Positions 21,657-22,782 of a DNA stretch of 64,000 nt are shown piece by piece. The stretch's first letter is position 1. Each line of letters begins with the position of its first letter. The notes below the pieces were generated by a model. It worked only from the letters and a program-made list of their open reading frames with translations, was not told the origin of the DNA and ran no database searches. The translations under genes and the position numbers were made by a program. This DNA is from Eledone cirrhosa. Lineage: Eukaryota. The stretch covers positions 232,128,001-232,192,000 of the forward strand of contig OZ024740.1 in NCBI GenBank assembly GCA_964016885.1. Reading direction: 5' to 3'.

Positions 21657-22782
21657 TATCAAAGGTATATATTGAGTTAGGAACTCAAAATAGTCTCTTA
21701 CAATAAAATTGTAAAGAGATATTTCCGAGCCGTATATTATAATTGAATATAAAAGAAAAACTAACACAGATATATAGATATATGTCTTCAAATCGCAAGG
21801 GACCAGATTCGCTAAGGTGAAAAGAATATTAACTATAGACAATTGGGTTTGCTTGTCTCAATTTAAGAAAGAAATCAAGAAAATAAATACAAACCGGAAT
21901 TGTGGTAACTACCAATCACCCTGACAGTTGTTGGTGCTGTTTCGCAATATTAATTATGAATAGAAATACCAATTCTTGCGCATCAGTGGGTGATGAATTA
22001 GTATCCTAGACACTTCTAAGTATATTAAGGAACTGAATAGTGTGCTATATATAATAATGCACATGGTATCTTAGCGTGTCTCACAAACCTACACTACTAA
22101 AAATAGCAGCCAGGTTTATTCGACATTTGAAATAGTTCAACAAATTAACGGAACCTAATATATCAAAGGTTAGTAACTCAAAATAGTCTCTTACAATAAA
22201 ATAGCTTTAAGAAAGAGATATTCCGATTTGAACACATATATGTACATATCTGTGTTCGTTTTTCTTTTATATTTAATTATAATATACGGCTAGGAAAACT
22301 CTCTTTCCTACAGCTATTTTATTGTGAGAGACTATTTTGAGTTTCTAACTCAATATATACCTTTCATATATTCGGCTCCGTTAATTTTTTGAGCTATTTC
22401 AAATGACGAATAAACCTGGCTGCTATTTTTGTGAGTTTGTGAGACACGCTAAGATACCATGTGCGTTATTATATATAGCACACTATTCAGTTCCTTAATA
22501 TACTTAGAAGTGTTAGGATACTAATTCATCACCCACTGATGCGCAAGAATTGGTATTTCTATTCACAATTAATATTGCGAAACAGCACCAACAGCTGTCT
22601 GGGTGATTGGTAGTTACCACAATTCCGGTTTGTATTTATTTTCTTGATTTTTCTTTAATTGAGACAGCCAAACCCAATTGTCTATAGTTAGTATTCTTTT
22701 CACCTTAGCGAATCTGGTCCCTTGCGATTTGAAGACATATATCTATATATCTGTGTTCGTTTTGCTTTTATATTCAATTATA
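21657..22782. mobile_element. Head-to-head pair of longer-than-unit copies of a ~501-nt HHR unit (family H)
   Basis: Plus part 22224-22782 has terminal direct repeats ~501 nt apart; minus part 21657-22222 also terminally redundant; HHRs at 21915-21994 (-) and 22528-22607 (+). Confidence 0.85.
22528..22607 (+). ncRNA. Type I hammerhead, A9C in this copy
   Basis: atcaccca CTGATGC gcaa..ttgc GAAA CAGC-accaaca-GCTG TC tgggtgat; the copy at 62934-63013 has canonical CTGATGA. Confidence 0.75.

Follow-up and report, generated by a model that had tools for sequence, protein, structure and literature searches.

The locus at positions 21654-22788 of the window (the whole stretch of 64,000 nucleotides of Eledone cirrhosa DNA that was analysed) raises the question of how two inverted arms of one repeat, each longer than the repeat unit and each ending at a different phase, came to lie face to face. 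A sequence-only reading had proposed rolling reverse transcription of a circular or multimeric RNA, with the arm ends as different permutation points of one circle. Two arms make up the locus; they lie head to head, each comprises about 1.13 units of a 501-nt repeat, and each carries a single type I hammerhead motif. Positions within the 501-nt unit are given as u numbers, u1 being window position 22224. The features of the locus are:

21625..21659, no strand: (TA)n tract adjoining the minus-arm 3' end, remnant of the target microsatellite (direct reading)
21654..22222, minus strand: minus arm, 571 nt, from its left 3' end at the u148 site via u1/u501 to its right 5' end at about u70
21654..21730, minus strand: 3'-terminal copy of u70-148 in the minus arm, repeated at 22150-22222
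21915..21994, minus strand: type I hammerhead of the minus arm, with C9 in its CUGAUGC box, a stem I of 7 bp and a stem III of 4 bp; cleavage predicted between 21923 and 21922
22150..22222, minus strand: 5'-proximal minus-arm copy of u70-148, lacking 11 nt in comparison with the plus arm
22221..22788, plus strand: plus arm, 568 nt, starting on the left at the family's 5' hot spot u499-u1 and passing through a full unit to its right 3' end at the u63 site
22221..22286, plus strand: 5' copy of u1-63, the plus-arm terminal redundancy, including a 28-nt palindrome at u7-34
22528..22607, plus strand: type I hammerhead of the plus arm, with an 8-bp stem I, C9 in its CUGAUGC box, a bipartite stem II of 4 + 5 bp, GAAA, a 5-bp stem III and GUC
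22722..22788, plus strand: 3' copy of u1-63 in the plus arm, terminating AATTATA...(TA)n
22779..22908, no strand: (TA)65 microsatellite adjoining the plus-arm 3' end

In unit coordinates the plus arm runs from u499 through u501 to u63 and the minus arm from u70 through u501 to u148; the arms are out of register, with the junction at u70|u499 and the outer ends at u148 versus u63. The terminal redundancy noticed earlier in the plus arm was recovered as a direct repeat of 61 nt with 90% identity at 22221-22281 and 22722-22782 (spacing 501 nt). That of the minus arm, at another phase as had been stated, was found as a direct repeat of 34 nt with 97% identity at 21676-21709 and 22169-22202 (spacing 493 nt), and with gaps allowed it corresponded to u70-148 with 58 matches, 3 mismatches and 17 gap columns. 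Comparison of the arms with each other gave inverted blocks of 137 nt (98%), 133 nt (95%), 84 nt (96%) and 72 nt (92%), and an overall alignment with 529 matching, 31 mismatching and 26 gap columns. At singly covered positions 13 mismatches were counted in 353 (3.7%), plus indels, and the hammerhead stretch was the most similar part of both arms (98%). The closest relative of each arm was the other arm (3.7% mismatches), other copies reaching at most 94% identity among the matches scored. Within loci, differences were all about 3-6% whichever parts were compared, redundant segments included, as in old copies, and from the 3.7% between the arms we infer that this copy is old. Because the arms differ by 3.7% plus indels and the same architecture recurs in 31 of 51 other insertions, the two-armed structure is neither chance nor an assembly fold-back. 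Contigs over the repeat were at most ~69 nt long in the four read runs checked against the locus.

The element is a repeat unit without LTR, primer binding site or polypurine tract, carrying one hammerhead motif per unit. The sole stop-to-stop frame of at least 130 aa that overlaps it (21237-21857, minus strand) also crosses the flanking (TA)n tracts. Of the 26 listed window frames, the 14 that were scanned, all lying outside the element, gave no Pfam family.

The hammerheads of the two arms are not equally well preserved. Stems of 8 bp (I) and 5 bp (III) had been ascribed to each arm; this description holds for the plus arm, whereas in the minus arm an A.A mismatch (pair 1.1-2.1) shortens stem I to 7 bp and a C.A mismatch leaves stem III with 4 bp. 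Cleavage of the plus arm is predicted between 22599 and 22600 (u376|377). The topology is that of type I, with three helices of which helix I is open, and stems I and III are present in the minimum-free-energy fold of the plus arm. The CUGAUGC box reported for both arms is indeed there, at 22536 on the plus strand and 21986 on the minus strand. Both arms thus depart from the conserved core (C3 U4 G5 A6 N7 G8 A9 ... G12 A13 A14, A15.1-U16.1, H17) by C at position 9, the remainder of the core being intact. Among 34 aligned family copies CUGAUGA was found in 31, and A15.1-U16.1 was paired in 29. Pairing was seen in 94.5% of 745 stem cells, as against 24-40% with slid partners, and covariation amounted to one compensatory pair, G-C to A-U in 3 copies, probably one event. 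The window gave no Rfam hammerhead match at the gathering threshold or at E <= 10. A canonical family copy scored 14.3 bits with Hammerhead_3, for which the gathering score is 48.5; the miss is probably explained by the 42-nt insert in stem II.

In the 3.0-Gb genome the C9 form occurs at two places, which are these two arms, as against 151 exact places for the 24-mer with A9. Since C9 is confined to these arms and the arms are mutually closest, they go back to one common origin, and on this point the earlier proposal of a single source lineage stands. C9 could also have arisen after insertion and then spread by gene conversion between the arms, which are most alike in the hammerhead stretch. 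Position A9 belongs to the conserved hammerhead core, so that impairment of the predicted cleavage by C9 is plausible; no position-specific value for the effect of A9C was found in the accessible literature text. With C9 in both hammerheads and further stem defects in the minus arm, the copy is probably inert. Taken by itself, it is an ordinary and probably dead representative of a known class of elements.

The family has a second insertion in the window, recognized by sequence comparison with the unit:

62783..63157, both strands: second family insertion, head-to-head
62783-62865, minus strand: its minus arm, 3' end at u63 adjoining (TA)n, 5' end at about u483
62866-63157, plus strand: its plus arm, from about u235 through u501 to u25
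62933-63014, plus strand: its hammerhead motif, CUGAUGA box kept, stem III broken

This copy, at 62941, had been called canonical. That is correct for its CUGAUGA box but not for stem III, the 3' strand of which reads GGUGC in place of GCUGU, with loss of a G-C pair and of the core A15.1-U16.1 pair.

The nature of the arm ends was assessed in the family as a whole. Searching the 3.0-Gb genome with the unit produced 2,496 first-look candidates, 40 of which were scored and gave 135 matches, and a junction query produced 1,326 candidates. Copies are scattered over many chromosomes, with a candidate count of at least ~1,300-2,500. Architecture was studied in 48 non-redundant loci, which hold 82 arms in 51 insertion clusters and are a small sample of more than 1,000 insertions; half of this sample was drawn with a full-unit query, which favours long arms. 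The 3' ends of the arms fell at u58-66 in 35 of 82 cases and at u139-156 in another 35, the remaining 12 lying elsewhere. The 5' ends were spread over the whole unit, with hot spots at u498-u3 (10/82) and u397-405 (9/82). A hot spot at exactly u1, seen in the first pass, was discarded as partly an artefact of where the unit had been cut (re-mapping with a repeated unit shifted 7 arms to u476-500); the u498-u3 cluster persisted after this re-mapping. Most copies are 0.1-1.3 units long. Thirty-one clusters were head-to-head, 20 single-armed and none tail-to-tail. When both ends of a pair were canonical, one u63 end was combined with one u148 end in 21-22 of 22 pairs (L008 is ambiguous; binomial p = 1.1e-5), and the locus at 21654-22788 shows this pairing too. 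Both end types were found within one sequence subfamily and within one locus. Parts within a locus differed by 0-8% and loci from each other by ~8-10%. A junction u403|u1 was seen in 4 loci with differing flanks, and for this reason some two-armed composites may have been copied whole instead of newly made.

These distributions bear directly on the notion of arbitrary permutation points, which has to be given up for the ends of this locus. The two outer ends are the two fixed 3' termini of the family, and the inner end of the plus arm falls on the 5' hot spot at u498-u3. A fixed linear element with LTR-like ends in all copies had been named as the outcome that would speak against a circle; the mapping of phases in the sampled copies came close to this, except that not all copies conform and that arms reach 2.1 units (L018).

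The target is equally regular. A tract of (TA)>=4 directly followed 56 of 70 canonical 3' ends, compared with 134 of 1920 control windows (7%), and (TA)n tracts make up 7.2% of the window. At this copy both end sites consist of an AUAUA motif followed by CGGCU, and both adjoin (TA)n. TA microhomology is inseparable from the microsatellite, which makes target-site duplications unreadable. A 254-nt insert at 21367-21620 sits in the same (TA) tract. Beyond the tracts, ~29 nt of unique flank are inverted (21288-21317 versus 22909-22937); a larger palindrome taking in the flanks was considered and rejected, as only 2 of 29 loci show one, and a short one.

Taken together, we consider it quite probable that the locus represents a single two-armed, head-to-head insertion of a ~501-nt non-coding hammerhead-motif repeat in (TA)n, and that a Penelope-like reverse transcriptase/endonuclease likely produced it in one event by priming cDNA from both ends of the break. 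In such an event TA microhomology would let the two 3'-OH ends of the cut (TA)n pair with the two AUAUA sites close to the RNA 3' end; from each annealed end a cDNA would be primed toward the 5' end of the RNA, and head-to-head joining of the two cDNAs would follow. The 85-nt offset between the ends would be the family's counterpart of the Penelope "tail". Because the arms are longer than one unit, the template RNA would be required to have exceeded one unit, and to this extent the sequence-only reading was right. A linear transcript of ~650 nt (u~1 through u501 to u148) from a partial-tandem source copy would suffice for this locus, and its terminal redundancy would be inherited in a pseudo-LTR-like manner and not produced by rolling around a circle. 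The linear form is present complete in L004, L021 and L030, among other arms. A circular template is not needed for these arms, though it would be compatible with them.

More tentatively, a single RNA could have bridged both ends of an endonuclease break in (TA)n via the two paralogous AUAUA-CGGCU sites 85 nt apart, with two reverse transcriptions on the same template joined head to head; we regard this particular form of the event as possible but doubtful. If it is true, the near-strict pairing of u63 with u148 would explain both the one-sided tail and the inverted copies of Penelope-like insertions, and ribozyme-bearing riders would share the pathway of Penelope-like elements. A collision model, in which the u148 arm halts where the u63 primer sits, was rejected; it fits only this locus and L076 of ~23 two-armed loci.

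It is, in our judgement, unlikely that the template was a monomeric circular RNA, formed by hammerhead self-cleavage and ligation and copied by rolling reverse transcription with each arm taking its own phase. This has been put forward for animal retrozymes in the consulted text of PMC7229834, and several features of the family agree with it. Arms longer than one unit are common, 32/82 overall and 5/37 in a less biased sample, the longest having 2.1 units (L018, 1083 nt). Same-strand hammerhead pairs within ~510 nt, as in L014 and L018, are rare (2 among the first 100 24-mer places listed), and since loci with two same-strand hammerheads are rare, long linear templates should be rare too. The circular fold of the unit is also more stable than dinucleotide shuffles, with z from -3.1 to -5.1 (sense strand, 3 units, 40 shuffles each). 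However, a circle is endless, whereas in this family two fixed sites account for the ends of 70 of 82 arms, and the starts of 19 of 82 fall in two windows 6 and 9 nt wide. There is no pile-up of 5' ends at the predicted cleavage/ligation site u376|377, three arms starting within u373-378, and both arms of this locus fit the one linear 650-nt form that is seen complete elsewhere. Comparisons of redundant segments, all at 4-6%, agree with a circular and a linear template alike. Moreover, two hammerheads flanking a monomer, the tandem arrangement, do not occur here: with one hammerhead per arm the locus itself would be unable to release a monomer.

Two independent insertions of the same family that were separated in time, hit one hot (TA)n tract and face each other by chance are very improbable. 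It is true that (TA)n is a strongly preferred target, that another element lies in the same tract (the insert at 21367-21620), and that separate insertions within one tract are seen at L008, L011 and L065. Against this, the arms are each other's closest relatives and share a C9 that is absent elsewhere in 3.0 Gb. Random orientation would predict as many tail-to-tail as head-to-head pairs, whereas 0 and 31 were observed, and independent events would not give the u63 + u148 pairing in 21-22 of 22 cases. We give hardly any weight to a DNA-level palindrome (an inverted duplication at cruciform-prone (TA)n), an assembly fold-back or a satellite fragment: long (TA)n tracts do flank the locus, ~29 nt of unique flank are inverted and the unit length is near that of the ~500-bp pDo500 hammerhead satellite of cave crickets (PMC2837043, as far as its text was available), but the arms are out of register and not mirror images, they differ by 3.7% plus indels, inverted unique flanks are short and occur at only 2/29 loci, and the copies are dispersed over many contigs with at most 2.1 units and no long arrays among the first 100 listed 24-mer places.

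A single head-to-head insertion by a Penelope-like enzyme presupposes such elements in this genome, and they are abundant. A search for GIY-YIG (PF01541) gave 10,596 candidates, and all 150 of the 150 scored were above the cut-off. Long ORFs at GIY-YIG loci contained RVT_1 in 6 of 6 cases and, in 4 of 6, a GIY-YIG domain at the C terminus (Pfam). An atlas comparison of one Penelope-like ORF gave animal PLE-like clusters and nothing else. One Penelope-like family ends adjoining (TA)n and carries a minimal hammerhead-like motif ~400 nt past the stop codon. No autonomous Penelope-like element sharing the unit sequence was found in the 16 loci compared (10 short and 6 long), out of more than 10,000 candidates; the only matches in these loci were two diverged retrozyme fragments of 68-73% identity, each ending in (TA)n. 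In the portion of PMC8557442 that was consulted, Penelope-like insertions are described as 5'-truncated, with partial tandems (pLTR), a neighbouring inverted copy that is itself 5'-truncated, a tail of 30-40 bp at one end and (TA)n targets; how the inverted insertions are made is still called unresolved there. Each of these hallmarks has its counterpart here. Fixed 3' ends (70/82 arms at u58-66 or u139-156) are combined with variable 5' truncation. A partial tandem with an adjacent inverted 5'-truncated copy is seen in this locus, both arms of which have 1.13 units. The tail is one-sided (u148 versus u63), with a length of 85 nt against the published 30-40 bp, and (TA)n is the preferred target. 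The consulted portions of PMC7229834 and bioRxiv 10.64898/2026.07.22.740005 propose that Penelope-like elements mobilise retrozymes, and the co-occurrence of the two holds in this genome. By analogy, the element is likely a non-LTR retrozyme inserted Penelope-style.

Circularly permuted ends and arms longer than the unit thus do not by themselves speak for a circular RNA template; the ends of this family are fixed, heritable and pseudo-LTR-like. The proposal that retrozymes ride on Penelope-like elements rested until now on co-occurrence and pLTR similarity, and a family showing every structural hallmark of Penelope-like integration adds structural support. The rule of one short and one long end is in addition a testable clue to Penelope-like inverted insertions.

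The arrangement can be compared with several known systems. In the twin priming of L1, reportedly described by Ostertag and Kazazian in 2001, both ends of the target DNA are said to prime reverse transcription, giving an inverted 5' segment and a direct 3' segment. In twin priming the second primer is used at variable internal sites on one poly(A) RNA, and the segments are nearly collinear. In contrast, both arms here have fixed starting sites close to the RNA 3' end, and they overlap extensively. The insertion architecture of Penelope-like elements was reportedly the subject of earlier work by Arkhipova and Evgen'ev. Judged from the consulted text of Craig et al. 2021 (PMC8557442), the family resembles these elements in 5' truncation, pseudo-LTR-like partial tandems, the head-to-head inverted copy, the one-sided tail, (TA)n and the hammerhead motif, and differs from them in that the repeat has no ORF and the "tail" is 85 nt instead of 30-40 bp. 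The hammerheads also differ: in the repeat, stem III has its full 5 bp and stem II is long and bipartite, whereas the hammerhead of the Penelope-like family in this genome is of a minimal form with GUAC as stem III.

Plant LTR retrozymes, in the available part of PMC4918200, are likewise non-autonomous, hammerhead-bearing and proposed to move via circular RNA. They carry type III hammerheads in true LTRs, a primer binding site, a polypurine tract and 4-bp target-site duplications, none of which were seen here. The pDo500 repeat of Dolichopoda cave crickets, compared by description only from the accessible text of PMC2837043, has a ~500-bp unit with a hammerhead motif as well, but it is a tandem satellite and its hammerhead has C1.1/G2.1 and a wobble pair in stem III, unlike the one described here. 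The closest counterparts are the animal non-LTR retrozymes (Cervera & de la Pena 2020, PMC7229834; Li, Clavereau & Pollet 2026, bioRxiv 10.64898/2026.07.22.740005). The words "microsatellite" and "inverted" are absent from the searched text of PMC7229834, and in that of bioRxiv 10.64898/2026.07.22.740005 they appear once each in other contexts, the supplements of both lying outside the search. Going by the parts of these two sources that were consulted, animal non-LTR retrozymes are mostly 170-400 nt long and are presented above all as tandem arrays expressed as circles, whereas the present repeat has 501 nt and is dispersed and often two-armed. In common with them it is a non-coding, AT-rich repeat of a few hundred nucleotides in many copies, with one type I hammerhead per unit, in a host genome that also contains Penelope-like elements.

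The two arms of the hammerhead repeat are joined head-to-head and bordered on both sides by (TA)n, the right tract being (TA)65, and a further family copy near 62941 is likewise head-to-head. Positions in the ~501-nt unit are given as u-numbers, u1 being an arbitrary point placed at window position 22224.

21654-22222, reverse strand: minus arm, u70 via 501 to u148, 571 nt; reverse complement of the plus arm, in another phase
22221-22788, forward strand: plus arm, u499 via 501 to u63, 568 nt
62783-63157, two arms: second family insertion, head-to-head as well

The terminal redundancy described in the sequence-only reading was found in both arms. 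The plus arm has ~61 nt at both ends with 90% identity, 501 nt apart, by sequence reading and with a repeat finder; in the minus arm 34 nt recur at 97% identity, 493 nt apart, or about 75 nt once gaps are allowed. Alignment of the two arms gave 529 matches, 31 mismatches and 26 gap columns, and their divergence over the 353 positions covered once per arm was 3.7% (13 mismatches). A 28-nt palindrome, GAACACA...TGTGTTC, lies at 22230-22257 (u7-34).

Searched against the 3.0-Gb genome, the unit gave 2,496 first-look candidates, 40 of which were scored, and a 131-nt sequence spanning the u501/u1 junction gave 1,326; exact matches to the canonical 24-mer around the CUGAUGA box number 151. For mapping of the ends, 48 non-redundant loci were used. 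Half were hits of the full-unit query, with its bias toward long arms, and half were hits of the junction query, which is free of that bias. Left out were the window's own copies, three flank-sharing duplicates and overlapping loci. The loci yielded 51 insertion clusters, sampled out of more than 1,000, with 82 arms, whose 5' ends were mapped against the repeated unit.

The different phases of the two arms had been read as permutation points of one circle, which the family data do not support, as 70 of the 82 arms terminate at two fixed 3' sites, 35 at u58-66 and 35 at u139-156. The other 12 have different 3' ends, several of them at further TA-rich positions (u25 or u283, for example). A run of (TA)≥4 follows within 25 nt after 56 of the 70 canonical 3' ends; among 1920 windows drawn at random from the outer flanking sequence of these loci, 134 (7.0%) had such a run (Fisher p about 1e-47). 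Both end sites in the window's plus arm read AUAUA(UU)CGGCU, and the microsatellite junction therefore lies inside a TA microhomology. The 5' ends are scattered across the whole unit, as in 5' truncation, with hot spots at u498-u3 (10/82) and u397-405 (9/82) and only three arms starting within u373-378, near the predicted cleavage site. The palindrome at u7-34 lies just inside the first hot spot. As to orientation, 31 of the 51 insertions are two-armed head-to-head, 20 single-armed and none tail-to-tail. The most interesting by-product of the analysis is a pairing rule: two-armed insertions with canonical ends combine u63 with u148 in 21-22 of 22 cases, one locus (L008) being ambiguous (binomial p = 1.1e-5). 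Since the same sequence subfamily, and even the same locus, shows both ends, they do not mark two lineages; sequence difference is 0-8% between parts of one locus versus about 8-10% between loci. The window locus illustrates this pattern in full: its left end is u148, its right end u63, and the 5' end of the plus arm falls on the hot spot at u~1.

These data suggest a mechanism in which an endonuclease would cut within a (TA)n tract and leave two 3'-OH ends, each of which would anneal by TA microhomology to one of two AUAUA sites close to the 3' terminus of the retrozyme RNA. The annealed ends would prime cDNA synthesis toward the RNA 5' end, and the two cDNAs would then be joined head-to-head. 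The strictness of the u63 and u148 pairing suggests that one template or one complex, rather than two independent RNAs, may hold both DNA ends. At the window locus a linear RNA of ~650 nt, running from u~1 via 501 to u148, would be sufficient: with priming at the inner site it would yield the plus arm in full length, and with priming at the outer site the minus arm, truncated some 70 nt early. The ~650-nt form is complete in other arms of the genome (649 nt in L004, 656 nt in L021 and 648 nt in L030). The redundancy would be heritable without rolling round a circle, because a daughter of such a shape has the redundancy of its parent. The inner junction rc(...u403)|u1, read as ...AAATACAAACC|GATTTGAAC, is the same in four loci with different flanks (L002/L003/L006, which share flanks and were counted once, L005, L010 and L023). 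Both points may be strong stops, or a two-armed composite may itself undergo copying; given the different flanks, whole composites may in some cases be what is propagated.

The alternative put forward in the sequence-only reading, that a circular RNA was copied by rolling reverse transcription with each arm at its own phase, seems unlikely. Two points speak against a purely linear view: arms reach 2.1 units (L018), and loci with two same-strand hammerheads are rare among the first 100 listed places of the canonical 24-mer. Some members of the family may therefore have had circular or multimeric templates. The unit as a circle folds more stably than its shuffles (z -3.1 to -5.1, sense strand), which is compatible with a structured RNA and does not distinguish the models. 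RNAs with defined ends appear to fit the family data better than an endless circle, and from the sequence of the window locus a circular RNA would be unnecessary to explain it.

Each arm carries one motif resembling a type I hammerhead. In the plus arm it consists of an 8-bp stem I (AUCACCCA / UGGGUGAU), a CUGAUGC core box, a bipartite stem II (GCAA/UUGC plus AAUUG/CAAUU) followed by GAAA, a 5-bp stem III (ACAGC/GCUGU) and C17, with cleavage predicted at 22599|22600 (u376|377). The stem lengths had been claimed for both arms and stand only for the plus arm; in the minus arm, which has C9 too, pair 1.1-2.1 is mismatched (A.A) and stem III contains a C.A mismatch. Likewise, the copy at 62941 is canonical in its CUGAUGA box and not in stem III, the 3' strand of which is altered at two places including U16.1. 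Rfam models recognised the motif neither in the window nor in a canonical family copy, and because of this the assignment rests on the core motif and on pair counts: in 34 family copies 94.5% of 745 cells are paired in the proposed structure versus 24-40% with slid partners, and a single compensatory pair (G-C to A-U) occurs in three related copies. The box is CUGAUGA in 31 of these 34 and CUUAUGA in one; CUGAUGC occurs only in the two window arms.

The two window arms are the sole places in the genome where a 24-mer with C9 is found, and a looser 16-mer has no others either. The shared change had been taken to indicate one source for both arms, and its confinement to them bears this out. C9 may already have been in the template, a source copy of which neither search found elsewhere in the assembly, or it may be a post-insertion change in one arm that gene conversion carried over to its inverted partner. 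The most similar part of the arms is the hammerhead stretch, 98% over 137 nt. As A9 is a conserved position of the hammerhead core, with the size of the C9 effect given by older mutagenesis, cleavage is expected to be crippled by C9. The hammerhead has 15 highly conserved nucleotides (review, PMC6155905).

Two independent insertions of the family facing each other in one (TA)n tract would also give inverted arms; this is very improbable in view of the C9 variant unique and common to both arms, the 31 head-to-head against no tail-to-tail insertions and the end-pairing rule. A DNA-level palindrome, an assembly fold-back or a satellite fragment is hardly credible: about 29 nt of unique flank are also inverted at the window locus, but such flanks occur at only 2 of 29 loci, the arms are out of register and divergent, and the copies are dispersed with at most 2.1 units.

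The inverted flanks form an imperfect repeat of ~29 nt just outside both (TA)n tracts (21288-21317 and 22909-22937), and L008 has inverted flanks of 16 nt with a different sequence. Just left of the element, a 254-nt G-rich insert (21367-21620) lies between two (TA)n tracts; on its minus strand, at ~21458-21488, it reads CCUGAAGAAGGGCUUAUGCCCGAAAC, a core-like CUGANGA...GAAA string enclosing a GGGC/GCCC helix of 4 bp. It could be a fragment of the end of a Penelope-like element. No further copy was present among the comparison loci, and a short similar piece lies in the L020 flank. A tRNA-like SINE ending in ...GGCCTTGTGCCAAAAGTAGAAACAATTATT is inserted at TA-rich u236-245 in L007, L064, L065 and L068 (u243), and also occurs at L033 1000-1210 and as a 194-nt x 2 tandem at window 48554-48935; it is a second element targeting TA-rich sites, the retrozyme interior included. 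Runs of (TA)≥4 account for 7.2% of the window, several tracts being 130-460 nt long, GC content is 33.4%, and no Pfam family was found in 14 scanned of 26 stop-to-stop frames of at least 130 aa.

Penelope-like elements abound in this genome, with 10,596 candidates for the PF01541 profile; 150 were scored, and every one exceeded the cut-off. RVT_1 was found in six long ORFs, four of them with a C-terminal GIY-YIG domain (Pfam). One family with RT and C-terminal GIY-YIG, at L044 4136-7028 and L045 3921-6842 (minus strand), has 2.9 kb in common at 96.7% identity, ends adjoining (TA)n and a minimal hammerhead-like motif, CUGAAGA...GAAAGUACU, ~400 nt past the stop codon. None of the 16 Penelope-like loci compared is an autonomous partner sharing the unit sequence. 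At L044 2514-2654 and L033 460-563, 5'-truncated fragments 68-73% identical to u13-148 each end in (TA)n, and point to a sister or older family of retrozymes whose 3' ends behave alike.

Animal non-LTR retrozymes were defined by Cervera and de la Pena 2020 (PMC7229834), with Penelope-like elements as likely mobilisers, and Li, Clavereau and Pollet 2026 (bioRxiv) argued for the same mobilisers on the basis of co-occurrence and pLTR similarity. Head-to-head arms, fixed ends and (TA)n targets were not found for retrozymes in the searchable main texts of these two papers. According to Craig et al. 2021 (PMC8557442), Penelope-like insertions are strongly 5'-truncated, partial tandems form pseudo-LTRs, an inverted 5'-truncated copy often directly adjoins the 5' end, a "tail" of 30-40 bp is present at one end only, insertion is biased to microsatellites with (TA)n as the preferred target, clades with C-terminal EN carry canonical hammerheads, and the mechanism behind these structures is not understood. 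The 501-nt family shows every insertion hallmark listed there; its "tail", u64-148, differs in being 85 nt long. The element is thus a further family of a known class, the non-LTR retrozymes, and its insertion was likely of the Penelope type.
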